DNA of 44,158 nt from Oscillatoria sp. PCC 10802 (GCF_000332335.1 NZ_KB235948.1:2804513-2848670), one strand, 5' to 3'; shown: positions 2,384-43,851, counted from the stretch's first letter. Translations and numbers: made by a program. The notes: generated by a model from the letters alone, not told the origin.

Positions 2384-2555
2384 CAGTCATATAGCAGTAG
2401 CCACTTAGATTAGGACGTAGGACCGGCGTCTCGCCTGTCCCAGAGATATTGAGGGCACGGAGGGAACGCCTGCCCTGCGCCTTCCCTCCGATAGCGAAGC
2501 GGGACGCGACAGCGTCCTGCCCGTGTCCTAAACTGACTGCCTACTGCTATATTGG
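2384..2555. repeat. MITE-like element (family A/B: ends TATAGCAGCAGTCATAT / TATAGCAGTAGCCACTTAG...CTGCTATA) with internal GC-rich hairpin
   Basis: Terminal inverted repeats tatagcagtagccacttagattaggacg ... cgtgtcctaaactgactgcctactgctata. Related copies lie at 3300, 8945, 13397, 14915, 20614, 28753, 30614, 43745. Confidence 0.7.
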
Positions 2556-3215
2556 TTAGGATAGGGGGAGCAAGGGAGCGGGGGAGCGGGGGAGGCCCGA
2601 TAGAACTGCTGCATCAACTGATGGTTGCCAGCTCCCTCAAAGGTTAGTGGTGCTATCAAGTTCTCGCCTCTAAAAGCGGCTACTATACTTACTCTTGAGT
2701 TGCTGCGACCAGACTTAACGGCGTAAAATCTTTCACTTCTGTCACACCATCCATAGGGATAATCCTCTCGTTTATCTAGACCGAACTCATCAACAAAACC
2801 CAGACTGTCTCGTTATTGGCCCTCAAGAGGCGGTAGAAACGCCTTTCTTGAAACCTCATCCCTTTCTGCGTAACCCTAAGTTTTTTTTTCGGGTGAATCC
2901 AATTTTTTTTAAGGCGCGACTGAACGTGGAAGGACTGATTTCTCCAGGCCAGGCTTGCACCATTTCTGCTTGAGTTTTTTCTGCGTTGGCCAGGACAAAT
3001 TGACGAAAAGACTCCAAGTCTTTGATTTTATGTCCCCATCCCTGTTGATAGCCCGAACCCGGTTTCAAGTTCCCCGTCTCGGACTGACGCTTGCGCCACT
3101 GGTAAATTGTATTGCGGCTCACGTCAAAGACCCGAGCGGCTTCAGCTATACTCATCCCCCGTTCTACGGCACTGATGACTTTTTGGCGCAGATCGTAGCT
3201 ATAGGGTGCTGGCAT
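2556..3215 (-). pseudogene. IS630-family transposase remnant: N-terminal HTH ORF intact, DDE region frameshifted, 3' part replaced by a MITE
   Basis: ORF 2856..3215 = MPAPYSYDLRQKVISAVERGMSIAEAARVFDVSRNTIYQWRKR...KIGFTRKK is a classic IS630 N-terminus. Downstream minus frames give ..VDEFGLDKREDYPYGWCDRSERFYAVKSGRSNSRVSIVAAFRGENLIAPLTFEGAGN.. (DDE core) in shifted frames. The homopolymer A/T runs at 2880-2915 are where the frame is lost. The reading frame then runs straight into the MITE end at ~2556. Confidence 0.8.
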
Positions 3216-3250
3216 ATATCATAGACTCCTAAACGCTTTTTATTACTATT
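2556..3250 (-). mobile_element. Degenerate IS630-family insertion sequence, 3' end deleted
   Basis: Same evidence as the transposase pseudogene; no intact right end found. Confidence 0.6.
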
Positions 3251-3299
3251 TTAGCATGTTCTGACCTAAATGACAAGTGCTATCCCAATTTGGGATTTT

Positions 3300-3382
3300 T
3301 ATAGCAGCAGTCAGATTGGGCACAGACATCAGGCGTTCGCTGCGATCAAAGCTGTCCGCGCCCCAAGTGAATACCGCTATAC
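3300..3382. repeat. MITE-like element (tatagcagcagtcagattggg ... gtgaataccgctata)
   Basis: Shares TIR and internal ggcgttcgctgcgatc hairpin with the copy at 13397. Confidence 0.65.
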
Positions 3383-3397
3383 AGTTCGCCCAGCAAA

Positions 3398-3436
3398 AAA
3401 ACCCCGTGTAACCGGGGTTCACTCTTAGGGATTCAC
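3398..3436 (-). terminator. Rho-independent terminator of the fasciclin gene
   Basis: Minus-strand stem ccccggttacacgggg followed by TTTTTTT. Confidence 0.6.
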
Positions 3437-3461
3437 CGGCTTTCCGGCAGTATGGCTCGCC

Positions 3462-4109
3462 CTACATATTGGGCGGCAGAATCACCTTATCGATGACGTG
3501 GATAACGCCGTTGCTGGCTTCGATGTCCGCCGCAGTCACATTTGCCTGATTCACCATCACCTTGCCGGCATCAACTTTAACCATAACGGGGCTGCCTTCA
3601 ACCGTCGCCACGTCTCCAGACTGCAGGCTGCCAGACTTGACGGCACCGGGAACCACATGGTATGTCAAAATCTTGACCAGTTTGTCTCTGTTCTCCGGCT
3701 TTAACAGCTGTTCCACAGTGCCCTTTGGCAAAGCGGCAAACGCTTCATCCGTGGGCGCAAAAACAGTGAACGGGCCTTTCCCTGCCAGGGTGTCCACCAG
3801 ACCGGCAGCTTGCAGAGCCGCTGTCAGGGTCTTGAATGAGTCATTCTTACTGGCGATATCCACAATGCTAGGGCTGGTCGCGGCTGCAGCAGGACCGGCT
3901 ACCTCAACCTCGACGGCGGAGGTGGGAGACGCCGGCTGAGGGGCGCTATTACAGGACTTCGCCGAAACTGGCATGCTGAGCAAGAAACTGGCACCGGCAA
4001 CTGCCACAAGGCCAGCTAGCTTTCCGCCCCAGGTTTTAACGCTCTCTACCTTCATAGCTTTCTGGTCTTCCTTGGCCCGATTTTTACGAATTGTAAACTT
4101 ATGTTTCAT
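3462..4109 (-). CDS. Fasciclin (FAS1) domain protein, secreted
   Basis: [23 protein letters not shown]...LTYHVVPG...[17 protein letters not shown]1 motifs; N-terminal hydrophobic signal (alternative start at 4049). Confidence 0.85.
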
Positions 4110-4383
4110 TGTATATCATTTCCTGCCGGTCAGCACTGCCAGCCGTGCCGGAAAAATTTCCCCCCTGGCTGAGTAGGAATACTTAGGCATGCCGGAGGGA
4201 ACCCTTGTGCGGTTCTGATTCGCACGAAATCGGGGCGAGCCGGTGGGGCGAGCCGGCAGCCCCCAGCTTTTAAGCATTTAATTGTTATTTTTTCATGATT
4301 ATAAAACTAGGCCAGCAAGTAATTTATATTAAAAGGAGCCGTTTTTATTTAAATCGTTTTGAGGGCAAATTGAATGTGCAGGT

Positions 4384-4450
4384 CCCTAACCCCTAACCCT
4401 TAACCCCCAACACCTCACCCCTCACCCCAACCCCTAACCCCTAACAGCTA
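4384..4450. repeat. STRR-like heptamer tract (CCCCTAA/CCCTAAC variants)
   Basis: ccctaacccctaacccttaacccccaacacctcacccctcaccccaacccctaacccctaac. Confidence 0.7.
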
Positions 4451-4891
4451 ACGCTGCTGCTGCGTCAGGTTCTTCCTTATGGCAGATGGAACCCCAGTGG
4501 CAAATTGATAGGGTAGCAATGGAAACCAATACAGTTCACATTCAAAGTGCGTTCCGCCCCATTTATCCTTGGAGGGGAAAGTTATCAAAAGCTAGGACGT
4601 AGTGACAGCCCCAATCAAAGCCAAGAACTTTGATGAAAACAAACTCTGCGTGCAGTTGCTTTTGGTTAAACAGGTGAGTCTAGCCGCTGGCAGTGCCTGA
4701 AGCCCAACAAGCCTGGATAAAATTAGCGGAACGCGCAGCGGCGCGGAGTGCGCGCGGTGAGCGATTCCCCCGGGAACGGGAGTGGGGCGCGGGGTTCCCA
4801 TGAAAAACCCCACCCTACCAACTACAACCATTTACGGGCAGGAGGGTAGCGGTTATTCCTTTGAAACAACTTTTTTGCAGGAGAAAAAATC

Positions 4892-5164
4892 ATGTGGGAC
4901 ATTATTGCTTGGATTGTCTTAGGTCTGATTGCTGGCGCAATTGCTAAAGCCATCTATCCAGGAACCCAAGGTGGCGGTATGGTTGCCACCATCGTTCTGG
5001 GTATTTTGGGCGCAGTCGTTGGGGGCTGGGTGGGCAGAATGCTGATAGGGACAAGCGCCGGGGCTTCCTACGGGGCGCTGACGCTCCCCAGCATTGCTTT
5101 GGCGGTGCTGGGTGCGATGATTGTCCTTTTCTTGTGGGGTTTGTTCACTCGCCGCGCCGCCTGA
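4892..5164 (+). CDS. GlsB/YeaQ/YmgE family stress-response membrane protein
   Basis: 90 aa, MWDIIAWIVLGLIAGAIAKAIYPG..GGMVATIVLGILGAVVGGW; RBS GGAGAAAAAATC ATG. Confidence 0.8.
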   Translation: MWDIIAWIVLGLIAGAIAKAIYPGTQGGGMVATIVLGILGAVVGGWVGRMLIGTSAGASYGALTLPSIALAVLGAMIVLFLWGLFTRRAA

Positions 5165-5259
5165 TAGCAACACCGCCCGCTCTGCGGGTTCGGATGTTTC
5201 ACTCTCCCCCAGCGCTCAGGCTGGGGGAGCTTTCCGCTTGAGAGTATGGAGGGAGAGCA

Positions 5260-5463: not shown

Positions 5464-5523
5464 TGCTATTTTCTAACAAGTCAGCGTTCTGCGGCAACCT
5501 CAACAAGCTTAAGGAGATAGAAA

Positions 5524-8599: not shown

Positions 8600-8896
8600 T
8601 AGGGGCACCGGGCATGGGTCATTGGGCATCATCGCATGGGGAAGGGGGCATCATCGCATGGGGTTAATTATAAACTTCTCTCCTAAAACCTAAAACCTAA
8701 CCCCTATAGCGTTTTTGATATTCCTGAGGTACTGAAAAGCCCGGTTTCTTAAAGAAACCGGGTTTGGCGCACTCCCCCAACTGAAACCCGCTAAAATGCC
8801 TAAAATATACAGCATTTAATTTGCACTTTTCATTTCTATTCTACCGTTCCGGGGCAGGCACGAAAACCCTCCAATACTGGCAAAATAACGCAATCA

Positions 8897-9106
8897 GGAG
8901 GCTCTGCCTCCTTTCAAGGGAAAAGCAGGTTAAAAGCATAACAGCTTATAGCAGTAGCCACTTAGGTCCGTACATTTCGGCCTCTTTTGCACCCCCGCAC
9001 TCCTGCTCCTATTGTCCTAACCCATATTACTACTGGCATATAGACGTAGGCCAGCGTCTGGCTGCCCTGAAGGTCTAATGTTTTAACCTAAGTGCATACT
9101 GCTATA
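8897..9106. repeat. Cluster of small repeat elements (family 3 element 8897-8937; two MITE copies 8945-9106)
   Basis: ggaggctctgcctcctttcaagggaaaagcaggttaaaagc; tatagcagtagccacttaggtcc ... cctaagtgcatactgctata. Confidence 0.65.
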
Positions 9107-9201
9107 ACTGCTGGGCATGAGGCATGGCAATTTTTAGGGGCGGTTTCATCCAAATCTTTGCCCGAAACAGCCAAATATTAATAAACTCAAAACAGCCAAT
9201 C

Positions 9202-13396: not shown

Positions 13397-13555
13397 TATA
13401 GCAGCAGTCATATTGGGCGCGGAGATCGCTGGCCTAGGGATAAAAGGTGTAGGACAGGCGTTCGCTGCGATCCTACTGTCTTAACTTAAGTGAATACTGC
13501 TAGAATGAACCGCCAAGACGCCAAGAACGCCAAGAGGAAGTTTCTTGGCGTCCCT
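13397..13555. repeat. MITE copy (13397-13505) followed by family-4 hairpin repeat (CCGCCAAGACGCCAAGAACGCCAAG, 13508-13555)
   Basis: tatagcagcagtcatattggg...gtaggacaggcgttcgctgcgatcctac...cttaagtgaatactgctaga; the family-4 motif is also at 27440-27528 and 37127-37165. Confidence 0.65.
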
Positions 13556-13636
13556 TCAAAGGGGCGGTTGATTGTAAGATTGTTGATTGGTGTGAATTCC
13601 TGTCAGGGATTGAAATAGGAATCGGGGAAGAAGGCC

Positions 13637-14914: not shown

Positions 14915-15234
14915 TCTAGCAGTATTCACTTAGGTTAGGACAGTAGGTCGCAGGAGCGCCTGTCCTATAGCAGTATGCACTTAGGTTAGTACATGGGCAT
15001 TGGGGCAGTGGGCGATGGGGCATCACGCAAAAGCTGGTAGGGGCGGGTTTACTAACATCTGGTAAAACCCAGAGACATCTTGGGTGAACCCGCCCCTACT
15101 TACCCCATGCGCATGAGCCCGATGCGCATGAGCCCCATAAGCCATGTCATTAATGTCTTAACCAATATGACTGCTGCTATACGCCTTTTATCCCCAGGCC
15201 ACTGATGTCCTAAGCAATATGAATACTGCTATAT
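14915..15234. repeat. Nested MITE cluster (tatagcagtatgcacttaggttag ... ccaatatgactgctgctata with an inserted GC-hairpin element)
   Basis: Same architecture as the 20614-20797 copy, including the gcgcatgagccc x2 motif, plus an inserted ggtaggggcgggttt...aacccgcccctac hairpin also seen at 28795-28860. Confidence 0.7.
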
Positions 15235-16848: not shown

Positions 16849-17685
16849 CCGGATGTAGCTCTGCTGTTTGACAGCTTACTGGCTTGCACAAGTAGATGCG
16901 TTTGCCCCGTCTGGCCTCAAGCATGCTTTCCTCGGTGCCGCTAAGCTTATCCCCTACCTTAAATGATTTAAGGGGATAAACGGGATCTCTTGGGGGCAAC
17001 CCCTTGGTCGCTCCAGTAACTCTGCTTGTGTGGGCAAGTTTTTGGACTGCCGGCACCGGCAGCTCACCGGCACCCCGTTCTAAAAAGTTTCTTCTGACAT
17101 TCAGGCATTTTTCTTATCTTTAAAGTTCCTGAAAACAGGGGGCAAATAACGGTCTGGCGAATTTCTTTACAAAATTTTTACATAATTGTGTTGATTGTGT
17201 GAAGCCGGCGCGCCGGTCGGGCAACAGGGCCGGCGGGCCAGAGCGCGGTGAGGGGCGGAGGGGCTGCCGCCACGCTTGGTGCGGCAACCGGGTTTCTTTG
17301 AGAAACCCGGTTTCTGGAAAATCCCGCCGGCTCTAGACAAAAACTTAGCCGAATGGTAAAATATACGAGATTTTCTGGAAGACTGGCATCGAGATCGGGG
17401 CGGGCCGGCAGTGCCGGTGAGCCAAAATCCTGACAAATCCCTCTTGAATATTAAGATTTGCCGGCCCAATTTTTGCCGCAGGTTATTGCGGTGGCAGATT
17501 CCATTTTAACAGAGCCGGCTTTAGTTGAGTGGCTCTGTCGCCAGCCGCAAGCCGGAAACAGGTACGGTGCGTTCCCCCTTGGGGGGAAGCGCCCCTACTG
17601 TTCAAAGCTTGTGCGTTCCGGCGCTGGCGAGCGATTGAGCTGTATTTTACCGCAGCATTAAGTTTGCTCTAAAATATAGCGGTTC

Positions 17686-17772
17686 TCAGTTGGATGAACG
17701 TTAGGCCCAGAAACCCGGTTTCTTAAAGAAACCGGGTTTCTCAGTACCTCACAAAGGATGAGAAACGCGATA
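17686..17772. repeat. MITE family 2 (TIR tagcggttctca...tgagaaacgcgata; core palindrome GAAACCCGGTTTCTTAAAGAAACCGGGTTTC)
   Basis: Near-identical copy at 40173-40268; partial cores at 8739, 17281, 41477, 42955, 43150. Confidence 0.7.
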
Positions 17773-19015: not shown

Positions 19016-19159
19016 ATTCTCTCAGGGGAAGTGGGGTGCTTTTCCGGCGGCGGAACGCACCCCGCAAGTCCTGAGATCGGGCACAAGGGCATCACGCATG
19101 CATGGCATTGGTCACTGAATTCAGGTTAATCAACCCGACATGGTAGAGCAATAAGATGT

Positions 19160-19238
19160 TAGGCTTTTAACCTGCTTTTTCGTTGAAAGGAGGCAGAGCC
19201 TCCAGATTGCGTTCCCAGCCTGAGGCTGGGAACGCTAG
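19160..19238. repeat. Family-3 repeat element (aggcttttaacctgc...ggaggcagagcctcc...gcgttcccagcctgaggctgggaacgc)
   Basis: Copies at 8897, 26452, 27378, 42863-43087. Confidence 0.6.
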
Positions 19239-19640
19239 GATAAAAAATAATGTAAATTTAATGCAGCATAGCTTAGACAGTCAGTTGAGTGCAAGGTATC
19301 TTACTTGCTAGTAGGGACAGGGATTGGAGGGAACGCCTGTCCTAGGTCCGCGCCCTAAGAGCCCAGAGCTATATAAGGTAGCGGCTTTGCCTGTCTTGAC
19401 AGTGCAGTCACTGGAGATTATTGCCTGGAGTTGGCCAAGCCCAGCCAGTCCTTGTTCGGATCGCTGCGCGGCACAGGGTTGGTCGCAGGATGAGATCTCG
19501 ATCCAGAAGCGAGCTTGACCCAACATCCGAGTGAGGGAATGCGCGTTCCCCTTGACAGTTCAAGGGTGGGGAGGGCAATCTAAAATGTGCGATCTCCGGA
19601 TGTTTTTCCATCTGTGGTGTATCCTGGAAAGAAAAACTGC

Positions 19641-19669
19641 TTGACAAATAGATGTTTTGATGTTATAAT
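19641..19669 (+). promoter_or_regulatory. Perfect consensus sigma70-type promoter (TTGACA-17 bp-TATAAT with TG extended -10)
   Basis: cTTGACAaatagatgttttgaTGtTATAATgg; no convincing ORF in the 430 bp downstream. Confidence 0.55.
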
Positions 19670-20117
19670 GGCAAGGCTTACTTTATGGCAGGTGGCTTGC
19701 ATGCTAGCCGGTGCGGTCGCCGGCAACATTGTCAGTTGCGATTTTTCCGCATCTTCTCCCACACCCCCACACATCCAAGACTCACCGCCACCGGTGGGGC
19801 GGAATTTTCTACCGCAACACGAGCACACCGGCAAGTTGAGTGCCGGTGGGAGAGGGGCTGAGGTTTTCGCCACCGGCAAAGGCGGGCAGACTCTGGAAAA
19901 GAGCCGTGCCGGCACAGTCAAAATCTGGAATTTGGCCTCTCCGGAAGGGTGAGAGCCGGTTAGGGGATATGGTTTCCGGCAAGGCGGGGAAAGCTGTGGG
20001 TAGCTCACCTTTGCCCCTGCAAACCTAAAAATTGCCACAGCATACAAGACGAATGCAGCCGGATTTGATATCAGGGGGCTTCAGTCCAGAGAGGTTCCGG
20101 CTTGCCGGTGGCACAAG

Positions 20118-20446
20118 TCAGGAGATCGTCACGACTTTACCGCTGTCCAAGTCGTAACGGGCCCCAACGATTTTCAGCCTGCCCTGTTTGAGCAACTCAG
20201 CTAGAATGGGTTGAGAGGATTTTAATTGCTCCACAACCAGTTTGACGCGACATACCTTTTATTCCCGTCCATCAATGTTTGCAGGGCTTCGTCAGGGCTG
20301 ATGCCGGCGAGAGAATGATCCTTTGCGGCGACACGTTGATGCCCAACCAGCTGGGCTACCAGGGGAGCTCCCAGAGTTCCGAGACTGGCAGCCGCGAGCA
20401 TTTCCCGGCGGGAAAGCCGTCTCAAATGCTTTCTGTTGTCCATCAT
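20118..20446 (-). pseudogene. Beta-carbonic anhydrase paralog remnant (Tat-signal N-terminus + C-terminal 40 aa; catalytic core deleted)
   Basis: ORF 20222..20446 = MMDNRKHLRRLSRREMLAAASLGTLGA...SPDEALQTLMDGNKRYV (twin-arginine signal; matches GDEALQKLMAGNKRYV of the CA at 22596). In another frame 20118-20235 gives LVVEQLKSSQPILAELLKQGRLKIVGARYDLDSGKVVTIS*, matching the C-terminus of that CA. The CADSR/HERCG core is missing. Confidence 0.75.
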
Positions 20447-20613
20447 TTGCTACCTTGCGCAAATGTTCAGTTAATAGAAGTTTAAATCTACTAGCTGGGA
20501 GGGAGCTGATCCTTAAGGTATCCCTCTTCTGTCACGTTGGGGCAATTTGACGAATTTGCGCTATTTCAGGCAACGACAGATCCGGCTTTCACCCTTGTTT
20601 GAAAAAAGAGGGG

Positions 20614-20797
20614 TATAGCAGTATGCACTTAGGTTAGTACATGGGCATCACGCATGCATGGCATCACGCATGCATGGCATCACGCATGCATGGCATCACG
20701 CAAAAGCTGTGAGTCTTTCCCATGCGCATGAGCCCGATGCGCATGAGCCCCATAAGCCATGTCATTAATGTCTTAACCAATATGACTACTGCTATAG
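20614..20797. repeat. MITE with internal 16-bp tandem repeat (catcacgcatgcatgg x3.5)
   Basis: tatagcagtatgcacttaggttagtacatgggcat ... ccatgtcattaatgtcttaaccaatatgactactgctata. Confidence 0.7.
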
Positions 20798-25141: not shown

Positions 25142-26127
25142 TTACGAATTGCCGGCTGCCGGTCGAGCCGGTGGGGTGAGGGGGAGGCGAATCGTGGAAG
25201 TGGCCCCCTTGCGAGCACTGCTGCTAGCGGCGATCTTCCCGCCGTGCGCTTCCACAATGGGCTGCGCAATGGCCAGCCCCAAGCCGGTGCCGCTGCCTTT
25301 GCGCGAGCGATCTGCCGTGTAAAACTGCTCAAAAAGGTGGGGGAAATCGGCTTCGCTGATGCCGGCTCCCCAATCTTGGATTTGCACAGCCACAAAGCCA
25401 CCTCCCACACTCCCGGAGACGAAAACCTCAGAATCCGGCGCAGAATATTTAATCGCGTTGTCCAGCACATTCAGGAAAGCTTGCAACAGCCGTTCTGGAT
25501 CGCCCTTGAACTCAACGTCGGGAACGTCCAGCTCGAAGCCAGGACTGGCGGCTCGCATGCGGGACTCCATCGCCAGCACGCAGCGATTGAGCAACTGTTG
25601 CAGGCTGACCGGCTGCTCTTGCAGCGGCAGGACACCGGCTTCCAGCCGCCCCAGTTCCAGCAAGTCCTGAATCAGCCGCGACAGGCGGGCTGTTTCCTCC
25701 AGCGCCGTCTGGATGAAGCGGTTCCGCAGCTCTTGCTCCTCACCGGCACCGCTGGAGAGCGCCTCCAGCGTCACTGACCCGTTTCTCATATAAATAAGCC
25801 AATCCTGTGACACATTCGCCAGGAACGACCGCCGCTAAAGCTCCAGCGCCGCCAGGCGCACCTCACTAGAATGAGACGAGGGGTCAAATCGGCGAAATCA
25901 TCGTTTTGAGGGATATTCAGCTTGTCACCCAAATGACCTGCCTCCAGCCGGATGGCAAAGTTGCGCATCGCCTGGATGGGCGTGGCGATGCGGCGGGAGA
26001 ACCACAGGCTCACGCAGGCGCAGAGCGAGAACGTCACCAGCACCGTTCCCAGCACCGTCCAAATCACGGCTTGAAACTGGCGCTGGAACTGGGCGAGGGC
26101 TGACAGCAGCAGGCGATTTGCTAACAT
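25142..26127 (-). pseudogene. Histidine kinase (TM-HAMP-HisKA-HATPase) disrupted by frameshift(s); H-box position reads Q
   Basis: ORF 25786..26127 gives TM + HAMP-like segment, then loses frame. ORF 25142..25813 (GTG start) gives FLANVSQDWLIY... (SQ where SHELRTPL is expected) plus an intact HATPase_c (NAIKYS, DWGAGI, GTGLGLAIAQ). Confidence 0.6.
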
Positions 26128-27069
26128 CTTTCAAATTCTGCTATACTTTGCTCAAGACAGTCGCCTAAACCTGAGAACCATCCGGCAAGTTGCTGCTCTG
26201 AAAAAAGCTCGCTCGCAATGCCTCTTCCTCATCAACCAGTAAGACGTGTTGCATGATGGGTTTACCTTGCCTGCAGTCAGCTACTGTACTTTTAATAGGC
26301 ACCTCCTCTCGATCTCATCCCCCCTCTGGGAGATTTTTGCCTGCCTGTCAGGGAAGGTGACATATTTATTTCATCTCCTATTAATTAGGATTTAATTATT
26401 TCGGCCTCCTTGGGAATGCGATTGAGAGCGGGGCGGATCGGTTTTAAGCTCTTAGGCTTTTAACCTGCTTTTACGTTTAAACGAGGCAGAGCCTACAAAT
26501 TTCGTTTTCAGCTTTATATTGAAACGAAAAATAGAGATACATAATGCAAATAAAATGCGCTATATCTTGCTGTCCGGCAGGCAGCCGGTGCCTGCCGGAT
26601 TGGTGCGGCAGCTGTCGGGAGCGCTGCGGCAGTGTTTCACCAAACACGCCGGTGTGCGGCGATCTCCCCAAAACCCCAGAGGCTTCCCGCAGCCCTATGC
26701 CGGCAGCCGCAGCCCCCCTCGCGCCCCACCGCCTCCATCTACAGGCTGCAGTTGAGAAATTCTCCTACTTTCCATGAAAAAGTGTAAATTTTATGGGAGC
26801 CGGCTAATCTTAATTATTTCTTTATGATTGGCGCGAACCCCTTGTGATATGCGGCGGTCAAGCCGGGGGTGATGTGCCGGGGATCGCCCTTCCTGCGGGC
26901 GATCCCATTGACAGTCGGCACAAATGCTGAGATACTGTAATATATAAGTGAGTCTCGGCTCGCCAAAGGGATACGTTTGGGTGCAGATTGTTAAAAACTG
27001 TAAAGTGGGAGACTTTCTGTCTCATTTTGTAGAGGCTTCGAGAAACAGGTTGAACTGAGAGGTTATAAC

Positions 27070-27249: not shown

Positions 27250-27539
27250 GGAACGCCTGCGCAAAACCCCCCTCTGCCACAAGAAACCGTCACAGCCCTT
27301 CCGGATCGGGCTTGGGGAGTGGGGGCGGGGCGGGGCGCGGGTTTGTCAAGCTCCTTCCCTGCGCCACAAATATGCTGTTAGGCTTTTAATGCGCTGATTG
27401 GAGAAAGGAGGCAGTCGCTTCGGAATGGCGCACACCGCCACATCTTTCTTCTTCATTCTTGGCGTCCTTGGCATCTTGGCGGTTCATAATTTTAATAAAC
27501 CGCCAAGACGCAGAGAGCGCCAAGGAAAGAAAAAGAATT

Positions 27540-28752: not shown

Positions 28753-29008
28753 ATATAGCAGTAGGCACTTAGGGAAAGGACTTGGGGTTTAACATGATGT
28801 AGGGGCGGGAACACCGACAAAGAGTGCCACACAGGTACAACACCGATAAACCCGCCCCTAACCTCTGATATAGCAGCCGGCAATTGGGCCATAGCGTGTC
28901 CTATGTCCTACCCAATATGACTGCTGCTATACTGCTCTATAGACGTATGTACGGCGTCCGCCGAGCCTGAAGGTTTAATGTCCTAATCTAAGTGGCTAGT
29001 GCTATACT
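28753..29008. repeat. MITE cluster (three nested/adjacent elements)
   Basis: atatagcagtaggcacttagg ... ccaatatgactgctgctata; tatagacgtatgtacggcgtccgccgagcctgaaggtttaatgtcctaatctaagtggctagtgctata. Confidence 0.7.
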
Positions 29009-30579: not shown

Positions 30580-30613
30580 AGCACTTATCCTTTTTTGGAT
30601 TTTCTTTAATAAT

Positions 30614-30777
30614 TATAGCAGCAGTCATATGGGTTAAGACAATAGGAGCTTCGGGAGCTCTGGAGCAAGGGAGGCCGGAATGTACCTTCCCTAAATGCCT
30701 ACTGCTATATAGACGTAGGGGGGGCGTCCCGCCCCCCTGAAGGTCTAATGTCCTAATCTAAGTGGCTACTGCTATAT
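30614..30777. repeat. MITE pair inserted between the hybrid kinase and the CheY-like gene
   Basis: tatagcagcagtcatatgggttaag ... tatagacgtagggggggcgtcccgcccccctgaaggtctaatgtcctaatctaagtggctactgctata. Confidence 0.7.
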
Positions 30778-30882
30778 ATCATTTGCTGGCTATTCCAACC
30801 CGTAAAAACGATTCTTTTGGAAAAAGTTTCGCTCAACTGATCGGGACGATCCGGGGGGCAGATAGGTGGGGATTATAGGGGC

Positions 30883-31254
30883 CTAAAACAAGCTGAATAT
30901 TTTTTGTTTCAGTCCCAAAAAGTTAACTGGCTTTGTAATATAGTCATCTGCCCCCAAAGTCATTGCAGTTTTGTAATTTTGAGGGTCTTCGTAAGCGGTA
31001 ATCATAAAGACTTTTAAGCTGGCCAAATCTTTTTTAATGATTCTGAGAAGTTCTAGCCCATTCATTCCCGGCATGTTAATGTCGGAGAGAATCAGCACAG
31101 CGGACGCTTCTCCCCGCTCGTGCAGGTAGTCTAGCGCCGCCTCCGCCGATAAGAAGAAAATAAATTCTATTTGACCGGCTTTGATTTCCTTTCTAAATCT
31201 TTGCTTGAACAGGAGCTGGATATCTTCCTCGTCGTCAACCACTATGACTTTCAT
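30883..31254 (-). CDS. Single-domain response regulator (CheY-like receiver)
   Basis: 123 aa, MKVIVVDDEEDIQ...LILSDINMPGMNGLELL...ITKP. Confidence 0.85.
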   Translation of the reverse strand: MKVIVVDDEEDIQLLFKQRFRKEIKAGQIEFIFFLSAEAALDYLHERGEASAVLILSDINMPGMNGLELLRIIKKDLASLKVFMITAYEDPQNYKTAMTLGADDYITKPVNFLGLKQKIFSLF

Positions 31255-31316
31255 TTATTTTACCATTCCCTTGAACTTGACAGTATTTACCCCGCACAAC
31301 CCATGTTCAGTTTTAA

Positions 31317-31348
31317 AATCCCAAATCCCAAATCCCAAATCCCAAATT
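31317..31348. repeat. STRR heptamer (CCCAAAT)x4
   Basis: aatcccaaatcccaaatcccaaatcccaaat between the sensor kinase stop and the CheY start. Confidence 0.7.
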
Positions 31349-34277: not shown

Positions 34278-34540
34278 CTATTTAATAGACCGTATTCAGT
34301 GGTTGGCAGCTCGCACCCAAACGGAGAAACACACGGCTTCAACCTCTCAAGGGTTAAGATGCCGGTTGCTGTTCCCCCCTGATCTCTCGCACAGGCGGCA
34401 CGCTTGTGCGGTTCACTGGCAGCGTCAGGATTCATTTTCGAGGTTTAGAATTCCCTCTAGGTGTTTCCTCCGTAACACTTCAATGCCTATTTTGCCTGCC
34501 GGCACAACGTTTTTAACAGAATTAACATTTTTTTTAGAAT

Positions 34541-34778
34541 GTCTTCTTCTCATTTGCGCAACAAACTTAATAATGGGCCGACGCCCAACTACAAACCGAT
34601 CGCCGAGATCTGGCCCTATCCCCGCTCTTTGGATTGCAAAAGGGCCGGCCTGCGGGCTTGTCGTCTTCTCGTTTGAGCAACAAACTTAATAATAGGCCGC
34701 CGCCCAACTACAAACGGCTTGTCGTCTTCTCGTTTGAGCAACAAACTTAATAATGGGCCGCCGCCCAACTACAAACCC
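34541..34778. repeat. Three copies of a ~61-bp repeat (cttgtcgtcttctcgtttgagcaacaaacttaataatgggccgccgcccaactacaaac); the last two are perfectly tandem
   Basis: Copy A 34541-34597 (diverged), B 34657-34717, C 34718-34778. Confidence 0.7.
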
Positions 34779-36651: not shown

Positions 36652-37413
36652 CCTTAAAAAGCCCTCAACGGTAGAAACCCCTTTGTTTCAGGGAGTTGGG
36701 ATCGTTAACTCATCAGACCAGACGCACCCGACGCTGAAAAGCAGCTGTACTTATTCTCTGTGGCTCCCCCAAGCCGCAACTATGGTTGTTCTACGGAATT
36801 GACTGGGGCGATCCTGCCGCGTCTCAGCACAAACACGTAGGTTTCTACCCCAAACGCCGACTCGCTTTTAGCTTTTCTTAAGGATTAAAGGCTGGCACCG
36901 GCGGGCCGCCTAGGCAGGGCCGGCGAAACATAGGTGAAAATAAGCAGTCCCCAGCAATTTCTTGCCCGGACAATCCGAGGAAAAAGGTAGGGTGCGCTAC
37001 CGAAATGTCTGGGCCGTCTCTGCCGGTGGCCGGTGAGGGTGGCCACGGGGGTTGCCCCTACAGCTTCTGGCTCGGGTTGCGAGACTGCCGGCGAAAAATT
37101 CCGTTTGATTATTTCGTTTTATAACAAACCGCCAAGACGCCAAGAACGCCAAGGAGGAAGAAGAAAGAGGGAGAGGGAGAGAAAATTTAATAGGGGCAAT
37201 TCACCGGAATAGATAGTTGGAGAGGCTGGCGGGGGGAGAAGCGTGCCGGCTGTAACTTAAGAGGATTGACCGGCACCCCACAGGACTCAATCAGCCGGTC
37301 GCACCTGGGTCAGGCACCCTGTTGCTGCGGGCGGTCTCGCTGCGGGCCGCCGAAATATAAGTGAAAATAGGTATAGCCAGCAATCTTTTGCCTTGCTAAT
37401 CGGATGAAAGAAT

Positions 37414-38142: not shown

Positions 38143-38218
38143 TCCCGCAGGGGCGGGGTGGCTGCAGGTCCGTTGCCCAATCCTGTACAGCGCCTGCAAT
38201 CCCCCCCTTAAATAGAAC

Positions 38219-38262
38219 CGGGGGTGCGTGACGACTTTGGCGTCACGCACCCTAATTTTCGG
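38219..38262 (+). terminator. Rho-independent terminator after the BI-1 gene
   Basis: gggtgcgtgacgactttggcgtcacgcaccc followed by taatttt. Confidence 0.7.
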
Positions 38263-38698
38263 GAAATGTGCTATAATGCCGAATGCGGTCAGTTCCTTAG
38301 TGTGACTCCCTCTCAGGGCTGGCAGCAGCAAGCGATTTGCCACCATATGCTGAGCTATGCTATATTTTGCTCAAGACAGCCACCACGACCCGAAAACCAA
38401 AGGCGGGTGGTTGCTCTGAAAAGTCCAAAACAGCTATCTAAATCCGATTTCCACTCGGTAGGTGGCTGTGTCTAAATCGCCTGAAAGCCCGAACCCCAAA
38501 GGCAAATGGCCTTTAGACTTGATGGAGACAGCTTCTTTCTCAAAGGAAGTCACTTTGTCTGGAGTTTGGACGTTGTACTCGCGGGTTCCCTGCGGGCATT
38601 GGTTGATACGCCTTGGCTATCGAGCTTGCCTCCTGTGCTTATGTATTTGTTACCAATTGACAGCAATTGATAGCAAAAATGTATCGGATTGAAAGATA

Positions 38699-39821
38699 AT
38701 GGAAGTCCTAGACATCAAACGCGAAATCGAAACGCTGTCCTACCGCCTGGGGAAAACCCAGGACTATCTTTGACATACCGGCACTGACAGCCCAGATTCA
38801 AGACCTGGAGCAGCTGGCGGCTCAGCCGGCGTTTTGGGACGACCAAGCCGCCGCCCAGCAGACGCTGCAACAACTGGACGGACTGAAATCCCACTTGCAG
38901 CAATACGACCGCTGGCGAACCAGTCTGGAAGACGCTACGGCAGTTTTGGAACTGCTGGAGCTAGAGCCCGATGAGGCGCTGCTGCTGGAGGCGGAAACGA
39001 ATATAACCCAGCTCAACCGCGAACTCGACCAGTGGGAGCTGCAGCAGCTGCTCTCCGGACCCTACGACGAAAAAGGTGCGGTGCTGAGCATAAATGCCGG
39101 TGCCGGCGGCACAGACGCTCAAGACTGGGCCGAGATGCTGGTGCGGATGTACACCCGCTGGGGGGAGCGTCAGGGGTACAAGGTGCACCTGACCGAAATT
39201 TCAGAGGGGGATGAAGCGGGGATTAAGTCCGCCACCCTGGAAATTGCCGGTCGCTATGCCTACGGCTATCTGAAGGCGGAGAAAGGAACGCACCGGCTGG
39301 TGCGGATTTCCCCGTTTAATGCCAACGGCAAGCGGCAAACCAGTTTTGCCGGCGTGGAAGTGATGCCGGCGATCGACACCTCGGTGCAGCTGGAGATTCC
39401 AGAGAAGGATCTAGAAATTACGACCTCCCGCGCCGGCGGTAAGGGCGGGCAGAATGTCAACAAGGTGGAAACCGCTGTGCGGATTGTTCACATCCCCACC
39501 GGCCTTGCGGTGCGCTGCACCGAAGAGCGCAGCCAGCTGCAAAATAAAGAAAAAGCCCTGGCCATCCTGAAAGCGAAGTTGCTGATCGTCGCTGTTGAGC
39601 AGCGGGCCAAGGAAATTGCCCAGATCCGGGGGGATATGGTGGAAGCCGCGTGGGGCAACCAGATCCGCAACTATGTGTTCCATCCTTACCAGTTGGTTAA
39701 GGATCTGCGCACCGGCGTGGAAACCACCGCCATCACCGACGTGATGAACGGCGAGCTCGACCCGTTTATCGAAGCTTATCTGCGCCAGGAAAACCAGATT
39801 GCCGAAAGCCAGCCGGCATAA
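38699..39821 (+). CDS. prfB: Peptide chain release factor 2, with programmed +1 ribosomal frameshift at CTT TGA C (38768-38774)
   Basis: Frame 0: [24 protein letters not shown] then TGA at 38771. The +1 frame continues [24 protein letters not shown]... into the 308-aa ORF with SPF and GGQ motifs ([18 protein letters not shown]). AGGA SD-like element 3 nt upstream of CTT. Confidence 0.9.
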
Positions 39822-40172
39822 TACCTTCGGGCGCTGCACAGTAGCGGGATGGGAATGTCTGGAGGGCGGCTGCCGACACGGAGGCTGCCCTCACCGTTTA
39901 GGGGCAACGGCGGGGGGATTGCCCCGGGAGCATCCCGTTTTTGCAAAGACTGTCACCCTCTTCCCCCCCATCCCCAGAGGGGGCCCCGAGCCCCCCCTAA
40001 CCCCCCTCTCCCATTAAGGGAGAGGGGGGAAAAATCAAGAATTCTCCCCTCTCCCCAAAGTGGGAGAGGGGCTGGGGGTGAGGGGGATTACAAAAATGGG
40101 ATGTTCCCGATTGCCCCTGCATTTTCATTCTTTTGATGCGCAACGCCCGCCCAAGTCTTAGCGGAATACGAT

Positions 40173-40268
40173 CTAGCGGTTCTCAGTTGGATGAACTATG
40201 GCCAGAAACCCGGGTTGTTAAAGAAACCGGGTTTCTCAGTACCTCACAAAGGATGAGAACCGCTATAA
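40173..40268. repeat. MITE family 2 copy
   Basis: ctagcggttctcagttggatgaac...cagaaacccgggttgttaaagaaaccgggtttctcagtacctcacaaaggatgagaaccgctata. Confidence 0.7.
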
Positions 40269-40486: not shown

Positions 40487-41467
40487 GTGACTCATCCCCG
40501 TGTTATCTGCCTCGGTGAAATTTTGTTTGATTATCTGGCTGACCAGCCCGGGCACTCCCCAAAGCAGGTTGAGTCTTGGACACCCCATGCGGGAGGCGCA
40601 CCGGCCAATGTGGCCTGCGCTCTAGCCAAGTTGGGGACGCCGGCGGGATTTATCGGCTGTGTTGGCCAAGATGAGCCCGGAGACTCCCTGGTGCGGGTGC
40701 TGTCTGGTGCCGGTGTGGGTGTCACCGGCATCCAGCGCCACAAAACAGCACCCACAAGGGCAGTTTACGTCCTGCGCTCAGAAACCGGCGAGCGGGAGTT
40801 TGCCGGTTTTGGTGAGCGGGACACCACAGAATTTGCCGATACCTATCTCCAGAGTGACCAATTGCCAGAGGAACTGTTTGAAAATGCTGAATTTCTGGTT
40901 TTGGGCAGCTTGGAAATGGCTTATCCCGACAGCCGCAAGGCGATTGAGCGAGCGATCGATCTCGCCGAGCAGCACTACGTCAAAATTGTGCTGGATGTTA
41001 ATTGGCGACCGGCGTTTTGGCCCGATCCCGCCGACGCCCCCCAGCTGATTCTGGATCTGCTCCCTCAGGTCGATTTCCTCAAGCTTTCCGAAGAGGAAGC
41101 TGAATGGCTCTTAGGCGCGACAGATGCCAGTTCCATATCCTACAAGCTCGACTCAGTGGAGGGTGTGCTGATCACCGCCGGCGAGCACGGTTGCTCCTAC
41201 TGTCTGGGAGACACTTGCTCGCAGGTGCCGGCTTTTCCTGTGAAGGTGGCAGACACCACCGGCGCGGGGGATGCCTTTCTTGCCGGTTTTGTCCACCAGA
41301 TCTGCCAGCACGGGATTAGCATTCTCGAAGACCCGCAGATGGCGAAAAAAGTGGTAACATATGCCTGTGCGGTGGGGTCGCTGACGGCGACTAAACCGGG
41401 TGCGATCGCCGGCGCACCTGATGCCGGTGAGGTGGAAGCTTTCTTGCACAGCAGCGCTGTTCACTAA
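40487..41467 (+). CDS. PfkB-family carbohydrate kinase (fructokinase-like)
   Basis: VICLGEILFD, GGAPANVACALAKLG, DTTGAGDAFLAGF anion-hole motif; GTG start. Confidence 0.8.
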   Translation: MTHPRVICLGEILFDYLADQPGHSPKQVESWTPHAGGAPANVACALAKLGTPAGFIGCVGQDEPGDSLVRVLSGAGVGVTGIQRHKTAPTRAVYVLRSETGEREFAGFGERDTTEFADTYLQSDQLPEELFENAEFLVLGSLEMAYPDSRKAIERAIDLAEQHYVKIVLDVNWRPAFWPDPADAPQLILDLLPQVDFLKLSEEEAEWLLGATDASSISYKLDSVEGVLITAGEHGCSYCLGDTCSQVPAFPVKVADTTGAGDAFLAGFVHQICQHGISILEDPQMAKKVVTYACAVGSLTATKPGAIAGAPDAGEVEAFLHSSAVH

Positions 41468-41785
41468 ATCAAGCGGTAAGAAACCGGGTTTCTTTGGGAA
41501 AAACCCGGTTTCTAGTATGACTGCGAGCCGCCACCGCCTTTGAGCCGGTTTAAATTTTGTTAAATTCTTTCAGGCAAGGTTGAATTCTATAAAATACATG
41601 GTAGGGTTGACTCATGGTTTATGGGGAGCATCCCGATTTTGTAGCACGGGCGTCGCGCTTACGCGCCGCTGCGCTAAAGCCGGGGGAATAAAAAAACTCG
41701 CTTGGCAGGCAAGATGCCTGGACGACAAGAGAGGGATTTATAAGAATAGTATGCTCCTTGGTTTATCTTAATGAAGGGAGAGTTT

Positions 41786-42808
41786 ATGAAAGGGCATTTC
41801 CTACTTAGCTTTATGGTAAGCTTGGCGGTTTTGGGTGTGGGAACATTAACCAAACAAACCCCTGCACAGGCTGAACCTGCATCTATATTTAGACCAATTA
41901 TCAGAGATATCCAGAATCGGCTTACCCAAGGAATGGTGATGAGATTGCCGGCTTATTTAGAAGTTATTAATGAGCGAGAAAAGCCAATAACGCTTTATGC
42001 GATTTTGGAGCCTTATAAAGACAGGGAATTAAGAATATCTCTAGTTTCAACACCAGATTGTCGGGCCCGTTTTTGTCAGCTCGGATACATTGCTGCTGTG
42101 CGAGAAGGTTCCGATAACCGACACCTGGATCAAAAAAGCAGCGGTGTTCCAATTAATTTAGGACAGGGAGTTAGTGGGGTTTACGTTGCTGTTAATCCAA
42201 GAGGTGCTTCCAGCGGTCCTTATGGATTGGCAATTTGGGAGCAGAATGGTCTTACTTTTGTAGTAAGTCAGCCTTATTTTCCTGGATTGACCTCAGAGCA
42301 GAACAAGCAGAGAATTATCGACATTGCAAGTTCTATGGCTAATGAACCGCCGATTTATGATAAGTTCACTGCGGCTTCTCGGAATATGACAGCAACGCCG
42401 AAAGTCCCAACCTGGAGACAATTTGTAGAGCGAGGCGGTGGGCGTTACATTCAAGTCGATTTTGACCTACCTGATGAATTTAGAAATGGCTTTGTTTACT
42501 TTAATCAAGGAGCCAGTGTTATTAATGCTTACATCCTAAAAGAGGGGTTGTCCAGCTATCCCGCAGCAATTGAAGGCGGACTCCAACAAATTGATTCTGG
42601 ACTTGCCGAACAATACATCAAATCAGGTCAAGCCATTAGTCTTTTCTGGAATTTGGGCAACTCCGGTCTTAGATATATCAATGATACTGAAGTGAGGTTT
42701 TCCAATTCAGGACATGGGTGTTTTAAAACTATCTGTTTAACGGCTCCTTTTCTCAGTCAGGCAGAAATTAGCCGAATTTTACGTTCAGTGAGAAACATAG
42801 GAAACTGA
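41786..42808 (+). CDS. Secreted hypothetical protein, AT-rich gene (alternative start 41771)
   Basis: Signal peptide MKGHFLLSFMVSLAVLGVGTLTKQTPAQA; no recognised domain; GC visibly lower than neighbours; GGGAGAG RBS before ATG 41786. Confidence 0.6.
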   Translation: MKGHFLLSFMVSLAVLGVGTLTKQTPAQAEPASIFRPIIRDIQNRLTQGMVMRLPAYLEVINEREKPITLYAILEPYKDRELRISLVSTPDCRARFCQLGYIAAVREGSDNRHLDQKSSGVPINLGQGVSGVYVAVNPRGASSGPYGLAIWEQNGLTFVVSQPYFPGLTSEQNKQRIIDIASSMANEPPIYDKFTAASRNMTATPKVPTWRQFVERGGGRYIQVDFDLPDEFRNGFVYFNQGASVINAYILKEGLSSYPAAIEGGLQQIDSGLAEQYIKSGQAISLFWNLGNSGLRYINDTEVRFSNSGHGCFKTICLTAPFLSQAEISRILRSVRNIGN

Positions 42809-42862
42809 AGACGATTAAACCGGGTGCCATTGCCGGTGCGCAGCCGTGTCGGTAAGGTAACA

Positions 42863-43087
42863 GGCTTTTAATCTGTGGAGAAAGTCGGTTCCGCCGACAG
42901 ATATGCGTTCCCAGCTTCAGTCTGGAAACGAGGTTTCTGGGCGGGGGTGCAAGAAACCGGGTTTCTCAATCAATGTTTTCCCCCGGATGGGGGATTCCAG
43001 AAACCCGGTTCTCTCGTTCCCAGCTCAAGCTGGGAACGCAATCTGGAGGCTCTGCCTCCTTTCAACGGAAAAGCAGGTTAAAAGCCT
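42863..43087. repeat. Composite repeat (family 3 ends flanking gcgttcccagc hairpins and a family 2 core)
   Basis: aggcttttaatctg...gcgttcccagcttcag...gaaaccgggtttc...gcgttcccagctcaagctgggaacgc...ggaggctctgcctcctttcaacggaaaagcaggttaaaagcct. Confidence 0.65.
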
Positions 43088-43175
43088 AAGAGCTTCTGCG
43101 TAATTCATCCAAATGAAACGGCTATAATTGGCTATAATTTATCTTATTGTATCCAAAGAAACCCGGTGTCTAGTA

Positions 43176-43682
43176 TTAGCTGGAATGTTCGCTGCCACCG
43201 GCCCGCAGCTCAAGCAGAATCATCCGCACGATTTCCTCTGGCGGCTGCGAGGCGTCGGCAACAATCGCTTCCTCTGGCTCTTCGAGAGTGTCGAACTGGC
43301 TTTGCAGCAAGTCCGCTTTCATGTAGTGGTTCTGGCGCGATCGCAGCCGGTGTGAGATCAGCTCGAAAGATCCTTTGAGGTAAACTAGCCTCATGCGCTG
43401 CAAGTCGCGCAACAGTGACTGGCGATAGGACGCTTTGAGCGCTGAGCACGCCAGCACCGCGTTTGTGTCCCCCTCCAGCCATCCGTCGATGGCGCGCTGC
43501 ATCCGATCGAGCCACGGTTTGCGGTCCGCATCGTCGAGGGGGATGCCCCGGCTCATCTTCTCGATGTTTGCCGGTGGGTGAAAATCGTCGGCATCGCTGA
43601 AGTTCCAGTTCAGTGATGCCGCCAGCAGCCGGCCAATGGTCGATTTGCCGGAACCAGAGACTCCCATGACTATAACTATCAT
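43176..43682 (-). CDS. Gluconokinase (shikimate-kinase-like P-loop kinase)
   Basis: MIVIVMGVSGSGKSTIGRLLAASLNWNFSDADDFHPPANIEKMSRGIPLDDADRKPWL...AVLACSALK. Confidence 0.85.
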   Translation of the reverse strand: MIVIVMGVSGSGKSTIGRLLAASLNWNFSDADDFHPPANIEKMSRGIPLDDADRKPWLDRMQRAIDGWLEGDTNAVLACSALKASYRQSLLRDLQRMRLVYLKGSFELISHRLRSRQNHYMKADLLQSQFDTLEEPEEAIVADASQPPEEIVRMILLELRAGGSEHSS

Positions 43683-43744
43683 CGCAGCGCCACCCGATGG
43701 AAAATGGGGGCGACCGGGCGGGTCGCCCCTACAATTTTAGCGTT

Positions 43745-43851
43745 TATAGCAATATGCACTTAGGTTAGGACAGTAAGACAGGCGAGACGCCTGTCCTACG
43801 CCTTTTGTCCCTACGCCATTGATGTCTTAACCAGTATGACTAATGCTATAG
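43745..43851. repeat. MITE copy
   Basis: tatagcaatatgcacttaggttaggacagtaagacaggcgagacgcctgtcctac...ccagtatgactaatgctata. Confidence 0.65.

Follow-up and report, generated by a model that had tools for sequence, protein, structure and literature searches.

What are the small repeats that crowd the spacers of the Oscillatoria sp. PCC 10802 genome, and do they share one origin? The question is raised by a stretch of 44,158 nucleotides (GCF_000332335.1, NZ_KB235948.1:2804513-2848670), hereafter the window, which has a G+C content of 53.6% and six HIP1 sites (GCGATCGC). An earlier note, made by reading this DNA, had described at least four nested families, here called A/B, Family 2, Family 3 and Family 4, as resembling transposable elements of the miniature inverted-repeat kind (MITEs). 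All four exist where it had placed them or nearby, and their motifs occur far above chance (18 matches against 0.02 expected, 11 against 0.05, 7 against 0.8 and 4 against 0.7, respectively). Very probably, the window holds several classes of repeat, and the dominant A/B and Family 2 elements are non-autonomous derivatives of the IS630 family of insertion sequences (ISs), whose transposases are DDE enzymes of the Tc1/mariner type.

The evidence comes from comparison stretches, designated by L numbers, of which L085, L087, L088, L090, L103, L105, L106, L107 and L110 are syntenic with parts of the window. Near moeA, the comparison of filled and empty sites draws on syntenic loci from four or five relatives.

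TA-flanked miniature elements and their partner insertion sequence

Which elements carry the A/B ends? The 18 matches are to a 25-nt end motif (TAGCAGYAKNCAYWTNGNTTARGAC, at most three mismatches). When weaker ends are added there are about 26, which make up 13 miniature elements and one IS remnant, in agreement with the ten or more copies claimed before. The 'A' end (CAGTCATATTGG) and the 'B' end (TAG.CACTTAGG) had been listed as A and B; both are real, but they are the right and left inverted repeats, two unlike ends, of a single family. Among 24 typed pairs of the Oscillatoria type, 16 are A+B, eight are B+B and none is A+A, while the MITEs of Coleofasciculus (about 102 bp) always have two unlike ends. 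The A/B elements are non-coding and 66-183 bp long, with 13 copies in the 44 kb; the modal MITE size elsewhere is 100-109 bp. Among the matches listed, the end motif occurs in at least Oscillatoria, Coleofasciculus, Anabaena, Nostoc, Calothrix, Symplocastrum and Leptolyngbyaceae assemblies, and all four families recur non-syntenically in Oscillatoria metagenome-assembled genomes (MAGs) and two JGI metagenomes. Most of the repeats fold far better than their shuffled sequences, with z scores of -3.5 to -7.

Is the TA at the ends part of the element or a copy of its target? In 29 elements, the search pattern had picked out one end only; a TA follows the opposite end in 28 of these, against a background TA frequency of 5.5%. 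Overall, TA stands on both sides in 51 of 55 pairs. The TA is a duplication and not element sequence, because the empty sites of relatives hold a single TA. Thus, the spacer between the MoeA and kinase genes reads GGTGC TA TTCTTAA in L085 and L088, and GGCAC TC[TAGCAG ... 315 bp ... CTGCTA]TA TTCTTAAG in the window. The DUF7219-MoeA spacer reads CTGAA TA ATGAACCGCC in L087, and CTTAA TA[TAGCAG...CTGCTA]GA ATGAACCGCC in the window. Upstream of a carbonic anhydrase remnant, L085 and L088 have AAGG TA GTCTTTGC where the window has two tandem TA-bounded inserts. The second of these, at 20614-20796, is an A/B MITE of 183 bp; the first, at 20521-20615, is an unclassified 93-bp insert. With two Family 2 sites, this makes five orthologous sites (three A/B) at which the TA duplication can be read, to which two nested sites are added.

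The first nested site lies within an IS remnant described below. An A/B MITE at 2390-2551 (162 bp with both TA copies, 90% identical to L082:2011-2170) has split the right inverted repeat of the IS at the TA of CAGTCA-TA-TTGG. Around it the host sequence is TATAGCAGCAGTCA[TA]-insert-[TA]TTGGTTAGGA, and the uninterrupted end, CAGTCATATTGGTTA, is found in other copies. The second involves an outer A/B MITE of the 107-bp type at 14915-15233 (about 105 bp of its own sequence), which fills the MoeA-kinase site and whose left TA has decayed to TC. It is split at the TA of CCTGTCC-TA-CGCC by an inner A/B MITE at 14966-15181, and its uninterrupted homologue is a solitary copy at 43745-43850 (fold z -4.5). 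Within the inner MITE stands a third level, a GTAG-headed long hairpin at 15035-15099 (GTAGGGGCGGGTT...AACCCGCCCCTAC, fold z -5.5).

The inner MITE and the copy at 20614-20796 are sisters. Their left flanks are identical at 35 of 35 nt and their right flanks at 99% over 78 nt; their interiors differ, holding a GTAGGGGCGGG...CCCGCCCCTAC hairpin in the inner MITE and about 3.6 units of a 16-bp tandem repeat (GGCATCACGCATGCAT, 20644-20702) in the other, which lacks the GTAG hairpin. The nesting described earlier therefore stands, with 14915-15233 and 20614-20796 sharing a scaffold (flanks 100% and 99% identical) around different inserts. Sister copies so nearly identical suggest recent activity.

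Family 2 shows the same kind of insertion. Its motif is the half-site of a core palindrome (GAACCSGGTTTC-type; GAAACCSGGTTTC), and its full copies, three in the window and at least six elsewhere, are 92-94 bp long with ends TAGCGGTTYTCA...TGARAACCGCTA and TA flanks; at least six copies carry the inverted repeat TAGCGGTTYTCA at each end. The element at 17675-17772 (+) has 94 bp plus TA on each side, with the inverted repeat TAGCGGTTCTCA around a 33-bp palindrome (fold z -5.2), and it is a precise insertion at CTAAAAT-TA-AATCC relative to L085, L087 and L088. The element at 40174-40267 (+), 92 bp plus its right TA, lies within a 437-bp window-specific insertion cluster; that TA matches the one in the empty site CCC-TA-AATGG of L107 and L110. 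The third, at 8705-8795 (-), is diverged and inverted. The family had been introduced as two full copies and five partial cores. It is a real family, but the full copies number three, and the cores are independent solo palindromes, not partial MITEs.

A/B and Family 2 thus show every testable trait of MITEs: terminal inverted repeats (TIRs), TA duplication, small non-coding multicopy sequences, and sites that were empty in relatives wherever they could be tested. Only these two of the four supposed MITE-like families can be called MITEs in the strict sense, since Families 3 and 4 lack demonstrable common TIRs and target duplications.

Which transposase could move these elements? The window contains an internally deleted IS of the IS630 family at 2376-3284 (-), 909 bp long and flanked by TA and TC, with a helix-turn-helix (HTH) OrfA, a run of nine A residues (A9) and the start of a DDE OrfB. 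The 119-aa OrfA at 2856-3215 (-) matches Pfam HTH_Tnp_IS630. In another frame 3' of it, the first part of the DDE domain (the first D region) begins and then runs into the element end; the copy retains neither the second D nor the E and is therefore non-autonomous. Its left end is B-like and its right end A-type. A complete IS of 961 bp is present in an uncultured Oscillatoria MAG (L042:3482-4442), with TA followed by TAGCACTTGTCATTTAGGTCAGGAC at one end and GTCCTAACCTAAGTGCATACTGCTA followed by TA at the other; window positions 2623-3283 share 92% nucleotide identity with it. The A9 run is kept in both copies, and when the open reading frames (ORFs) of the complete IS are joined there, the resulting 290-aa protein scores 192 bits on the IS630 model NF033545 of NCBIfam (cutoff 100), covers model positions 2-295 of 299, and also matches DDE_3 and HTH_Tnp_IS630. 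The ends of both ISs fit the same 25-nt motif as the A/B MITE ends. The autonomous partner that the earlier note had proposed to look for is therefore an IS630 element, complete in the MAG and defective in the window. The insertion cluster around the remnant is missing from the 67-bp spacer between the GNAT and fasciclin genes in L103, L105 and L106.

For Family 2, a related IS630 transposase is the likely agent, because its inverted repeat resembles the A/B repeat (about 67% alike, TAGC.G.T...CA.TT.G). In about 0.95 Mb of related sequence, the search for further IS630 copies or for a Family 2 partner returned only the complete IS and the window remnant, and a search of PLSDB plasmids with the IS found distant IS630 transposases only.

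How might such elements spread? A transposase made elsewhere in the genome would bind the terminal inverted repeats of about 25 bp, excise the element and insert it at a TA dinucleotide, which would be duplicated. The enzyme would consist of the HTH OrfA fused to the DDE OrfB, probably through -1 slippage on the A9 run. New copies would often land in or beside resident ones and so give rise to tandem pairs with one common TA and to nests of up to three levels. Because the window IS is defective and a single complete copy is present in about 0.95 Mb, mobilisation in trans in this genome is a step that we infer, as are the frameshift and current activity.

The remaining A/B copies show how tightly these elements cluster. 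At three sites, a MITE of a 96-bp type stands directly 5' of a short derivative of about 66 bp, and in two of the pairs a single TA is common to both. In the first pair (8947-9040 and 9039-9106), the longer element has a TA in common with a Family 3 copy on its left and with the short derivative on its right. In this derivative the left end (TAGACGTAGG) is degenerate and the right inverted repeat normal, and there is a GC hairpin. In the second (28754-28931 and 28938-29006, 6 bp apart), the longer element is absent from L087 and carries an internal insertion of 70-80 bp that includes a GTAG hairpin (28797-28866). The third pair (30614-30709, 96 bp, and 30708-30776, with one TA in common) stands, as had been noted, between two co-oriented two-component genes; its longer member lies between the genes for a response regulator and a hybrid kinase, and is absent from L087. 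The longer element occurs in either orientation, so the pairs are separate events and not copies of one composite. Two further MITEs lie at 3300-3381 (82 bp, TA-flanked, recognised by reading the sequence and through a direct-repeat family) and at 13397-13504 (108 bp, the occupant of the DUF7219-MoeA site, right TA decayed to GA, absent from L085, L087, L088 and L090).

Altogether, nine of the 13 A/B copies adjoin or are nested in another repeat, and for 12 the nearest repeat is no more than 15 bp away. Such clustering may mean that the CTA-TA-TAG junction formed by resident ends is preferred, or that copies survive only in permissive spots. The MoeA-kinase spacer holds other inserts in relatives, namely an element with a 21-bp direct repeat (TTAGAACAAGCCTCTTTTGCC) at L087:3560-3700 and a palindrome pair at L090:2680-2735; such spacers are independent insertion hotspots.

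Hairpin repeats and rival explanations

Could the repeats be signals, repeated because they are functional? It might be supposed that they are mainly selected RNA or DNA signals, such as terminators, attenuators, mRNA-stabilising 3' hairpins or small RNA genes. The stable folds would fit this idea, and so would the 33-bp core of Family 2 (AGAAACCCGGTTTCT-TAA-AGAAACCGGGTTTCT), which is a separate entity with 31 solo instances in the loci analysed. Twenty-three of the 31 stand 6-180 nt after a gene end, and 11 lie in convergent spacers, about twice the 17.6% expected from spacer lengths. One palindrome is kept in the 67-bp GNAT-fasciclin convergent spacer of three relatives, and another in the window, of the AGAAACCSGGTTTCT-n-AGAAACCSGGTTTCT type at 17284-17314, is at the orthologous place in L085 and L087. 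In the window itself, a canonical intrinsic terminator (AACCCCG..CGGGGTT followed by T7) stands after the fasciclin gene at 3390-3425 (-), where the convergent spacer of the relatives has the AGAAACCGGGTTTCT palindrome instead.

It is plausible from their positions that the solo palindromes are REP-like, after the repetitive extragenic palindromes (REPs), and play a role at transcript 3' ends. However, such a function would no more speak against mobility here than it does in the case of REPs. As an account of the repeats at large, functional selection is unlikely: every testable A/B and Family 2 site is empty in relatives, copies are nested in one another and in an IS, and Rfam gave no match at its gathering score over the whole window. 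Family 3 copies had looked biased in orientation in the window alone, but across loci nine have the same orientation as the upstream gene and five the opposite, which is not significant.

Might the repeats have spread mainly by recombination, gene conversion or slippage among existing copies, and not by transposition? Mosaic interiors and tandem repeats could be read in this way, for example the 16-bp units at 20644-20702, the (GGAACGAG)n tails of Family 3 and an array of four palindrome units after pfkB in L107 (L107:8171-8500). One unit of split-palindrome type in the window, at 42932-43012 between two inverted Family 3 copies, is 85% identical to this array. A Family 3-like variant at 27378-27440 (+) has the opposite orientation in the same spacer of L087, which also agrees with such a process. 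Nevertheless, conversion cannot make precise insertions with a duplicated TA at unrelated single-copy sites, and a matching DDE transposase exists. The idea is therefore very unlikely to account for most of the repeats, and transposition of IS630-derived MITEs is preferred for A/B and Family 2.

What, then, are Families 3 and 4? Family 3 is about 85 bp long (TAAGCTGTTAGGCTTTTAAYCTG..GGAGGCAGAGCCTCC..CGTTCCCAGSC...GSCTGGGAACGAGR) and is a real family, although the five copies counted before are four copies and two variants. Full copies lie at 19152-19236 (+, fold z -5.1) and 43012-43095 (-), a copy without hairpin 2 at 8887-8948 (-) and a decayed copy at 26445-26527 (+). Besides the variant reversed in L087, there is one at 42860-42925 (+) in which hairpin 1 is different yet paired (GTCGG...CCGAC). 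An alignment of 16-25 copies revealed no TIRs, since the 5' end (TAAGCTGTTAGGC) bears no relation to the 3' end (CTGGGAACGAGA), and the copies have no common flanking repeat and no TA on their right flanks. The boundaries cannot be fixed by synteny because the orthologous spacers are too diverged. Both hairpins of this family are also met with where the 5' part is missing, another paired sequence can stand in place of hairpin 1, and (GGAACGAG)n often follows on the 3' side. Between copies, the inner stem of hairpin 2 shows, on direct reading, a compensatory C-G to G-C swap; with RNAalifold, pairs are conserved but those of the outer stems hardly covary. The motif AGGCTTTTAACCT was considered as a tRNA-Lys-like anticodon arm and rejected, as ARAGORN gave no match and the stem is poor.

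Family 4, the weakest of the four, is a 27-nt motif of CGCCAAGA-like units that may form a full hairpin, be paired with an inverted copy or stand as one arm alone, with inconsistent flanks. The three copies described earlier correspond to four arms at three sites. The hairpin at 13505-13575 (ATGAACCGCCAAGACGCCAAGAACGCCAAG...) is common to L087 and L090 and absent from L085 and L088; the long hairpin at 27443-27530 consists of two inverted arms (fold z -7.1); and the single arm at 37119-37168 (+) is old, since it lies within sequence that aligns with L107. GTAG heads (GTAGGGGCG) form a further group, with seven occurrences against 0.28 expected and inverted pairs at 15037/15099 and 28799/28866. 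Each has a GTAG head on a GC-rich palindrome and is repeated, which fits the description of GTAG REPs. No REP-associated tyrosine (Y1) transposase (RAYT) was found among 30 ORFs scanned in the window, the genome beyond the window not having been searched.

By their structure, Families 3 and 4 would be repeats of modular hairpins or of short tandem units, and nearer to REP-like elements than to MITEs. Together with the GTAG hairpins and the solo palindromes, they are seen both alone and as passengers within MITEs. At a best guess, the hairpin families would spread by a transposition that is specific to single-strand hairpins, like that of RAYT or IS200/IS605 elements, or else through slippage and conversion. 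That all four families are MITEs of one mechanism, with Families 3 and 4 as decayed TIR elements of the same or a similar DDE transposase, is highly improbable: some Family 4 copies are palindromic and next to TA (L087, L042), a Family 3 copy and an A/B MITE have a TA in common at 8947/8948, and all families occur together in the same spacers, but the Family 3 ends are not mutual inverted repeats, its hairpin modules are found on their own, and Family 4 is an octamer-like motif in varied arrangements.

Several points weigh against the derivation of A/B and Family 2 from IS630 elements and their separation from the hairpin repeats. The window has no intact transposase gene, its sole IS copy being defective, and the related sequence searched contains one complete IS copy and no IS with Family 2-type ends. 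Several of the duplicated TAs have decayed (TC at 14915, GA at 13503, TC at 3283 and TC at 40172). The boundaries of Families 3 and 4 are not fixed by empty sites, the spacers being too diverged, so that a very short or unusual target duplication is conceivable there. The pairs of 96-bp elements and short derivatives could have come from target preference, aberrant repair or transposition as a unit, and the clustering of copies may reflect selection, with few permissive spots, and not targeting.

The 368-bp insertion upstream of prfB

Is there an insertion of another kind in the window? At 38319-38686 (+), 13 nt upstream of the prfB ATG and outside the families described before, lies an insertion of 368 bp. 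Its empty site in L107 and L110 is clean, with CTCAGGG directly joined to ATTGAAAG. One homologue, at L087:9184-9552, is 8 nt upstream of a zinc-ribbon gene, and the corresponding empty site in the window joins GAGAGGTT to ATAACATG; another, at L013:4990-5303 (-), is 70 nt upstream of a GH57 gene. These three full copies always have the orientation of the gene and always stand just after a G-rich run (AGG or GGG). A partial copy with the 5' 109 bp is present at 26096-26204 (+).

All copies keep a promoter-like TTGCCA-18-TGCTATATT, found by promoter scan and resembling a sigma-70 promoter, as well as hairpins whose loops are conserved; the leader, about 320 nt long, folds strongly (z -4.0). The element has neither inverted repeats nor a consistent target duplication. 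Rfam at a permissive E-value gave chance-level matches only over 38200-38760, and no Y1 transposase or TnpB partner was found.

Putative mobile promoters are known in which one intergenic promoter segment stands upstream of unrelated genes, and the peel-and-paste derivatives of IS200/IS605 have no TIRs and no target duplication. The 368-bp element resembles both, as it lies upstream of unrelated genes and lacks TIRs and target duplication. It differs from IS200/IS605 miniatures in that its subterminal hairpins are not convincingly common to both ends. By these likenesses it may be a mobile promoter/leader cassette or a miniature element of the IS200/IS605 type.

Two bolder proposals, unlikely as they stand, would make the 368-bp element a new kind of mobile promoter/leader cassette and have IS630-type MITEs prefer the CTA-TA-TAG of resident ends as a landing pad. 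If the cassette reading were true, insertion would rewire expression, and if the landing-pad reading were true, nests and tandems would be built by targeting and not by selection alone. Any wider interest of the locus may be confined to this promoter-carrying insertion in the prfB leader.

Genomic setting, known relatives and significance

The genes of the window are of the cyanobacterial housekeeping kind: cemA, sbtA, a beta-carbonic anhydrase gene, group-2 sigma factor genes, moeA, lgt, prfB with its frameshift site, and two-component genes. Neither tRNA nor tmRNA genes were found in the window. The nearest relatives of its MoeA share 92% identity (an ENA metagenome) and 88% (Oscillatoria princeps RMCB-10), and an exact search with the response regulator returned no match; the window is thus chromosomal DNA of a cyanobacterium related to O. 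princeps.

How much of the spacer DNA do the repeats make up? By our own gene model, intergenic DNA amounts to about one third of the window, or about 13.9 kb. The repeats had been credited with most of it; they occupy about 3.05 kb, or 22%, and about 27% with the IS remnant, figures that are lower bounds, as detection relied on about 0.7 Mb of comparison sequence.

Nor did the suggestion that the repeats are a likely driver of local rearrangement gain direct support. One synteny break coincides with palindrome units (41484/43010). The solo palindrome at 41480-41512, which begins 13 nt beyond the stop codon of pfkB, marks the end of synteny with L107 (position 41484), and at 42932-43010 there is again a homologous unit; this bears on rearrangement and is suggestive only. 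Between the palindrome units lies a 345-aa ORF (41771-42808) with no Pfam match, a low G+C content (about 45%) and atypical codon usage. In L107 an aconitase gene occupies this place, and the ORF may have been acquired.

Other differences from relatives are deletions or absences. L087 is without the cemA-sbtA block (window positions of about 20.5-26.7 kb, some 6 kb); the junctions of this gap lie in spacers, with no repeat at the L087 junction. It also lacks the gene for a 123-aa response regulator together with the adjacent MITE pair (30609-31326), and its two kinase genes are 73 bp apart (L087:12752-12769). The stretch at 19501-20520 is homologous to a gene for a 239-aa beta-carbonic anhydrase (L085:15721-16440) from which about 395 bp are gone internally, and is probably a pseudogene. 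No repeats were seen at the junctions of this deletion or of the missing response-regulator gene.

Further repeats of other kinds are present. Three tandem units of 61 bp lie upstream of lgt or at its 5' end (34536-34776), and at least five units of a 39-bp tandem repeat lie within a gene that runs off the window end (43899-44158). Upstream of the gene for a 974-aa kinase, the heptamer CCCAAAT is repeated four times (31315-31347). Window-specific DNA between prfB and pfkB (39830-40173) contains G/C-rich palindromes (CCCCCCTCTCCC..GGGAGAGGGGGG and others) and recurs in other loci (L093); the 95-aa ORF within it, at 39849-40136, is probably spurious.

To which known elements are the A/B MITEs closest? 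Their closest analogues are RUP with IS630-Spn1 and the MITEs of other cyanobacteria. RUP insertion duplicates a TA. RUP is a 107-bp non-coding element with TIRs like those of the IS630-family IS630-Spn1; its mobilisation is believed to occur in trans, and it reportedly inserts in or near IS elements (PMC3049150). The A/B elements resemble it in their modal size, their IS630-family partner and the presence of copies in and beside IS and MITE copies. They differ in belonging to another phylum, in sequence, in their consistently unlike ends, in mosaic interiors with GTAG hairpins and in nesting at three levels. Among cyanobacteria, Nezha (with an ISNpu3-like partner), MaeMITEa-h and the Anabaena MITEs are small elements that have TIRs, direct repeats and a stable fold, whose filled and empty sites differ among close relatives and which have an IS partner with the same inverted repeats (PMC3184786). 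Microcystis has many ISs of the IS630 family, including the 956-bp ISMae21, and hundreds of MITEs (PMC2779907). A/B is likened to Nezha and the MaeMITEs by description only; its inverted repeat (TAGCAGTAG.CACTTAGGTTAGGAC) extends, among the matches listed, across Oscillatoriales, Nostocales and Leptolyngbyaceae.

The passengers also have parallels. Di Nocera et al. described GTAG-15 dimers in Anabaena variabilis that are inserted within long TA-ended palindromes (PMC3733652). The hairpin at 15035-15099 inside the TA-flanked element at 14966-15181, and the inverted GTAG pairs, are similar to these; in contrast to GTAG REPs, the stems here are longer (about 13-16 bp) and the Family 3 hairpins have no GTAG head. 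Elhai et al. (2008) reportedly found that the small dispersed repeats (SDRs) of Nostoc are very small repeats inserted inside other repeats in filamentous cyanobacteria. By description, the CGCCAAGA-type units of Family 4, the CCCAAAT heptamers and the (GGAACGAG)n tails recall short tandemly repeated repetitive (STRR) sequences.

What do these elements mean for the organism and its relatives? MITEs derived from IS630 are already established, and A/B is a further lineage of them, a solid but ordinary one; nothing here changes what is known about MITEs. Within the alignable spacers, the elements explain nearly all differences in length (45 against 362 bp; 67 against 1115 bp), and recognising them prevents spurious ORF calls, such as the one at 39849-40136. 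Their use as typing markers, as the earlier note had proposed, is reasonable because insertion sites differ between relatives: every tested insertion is species- or strain-specific, so that the presence or absence of a copy is an inexpensive marker for a lineage of Oscillatoria that is under-sampled. In the nested copies, finally, nature has left a clean record of how an IS630-family transposase targets TA in cyanobacteria.

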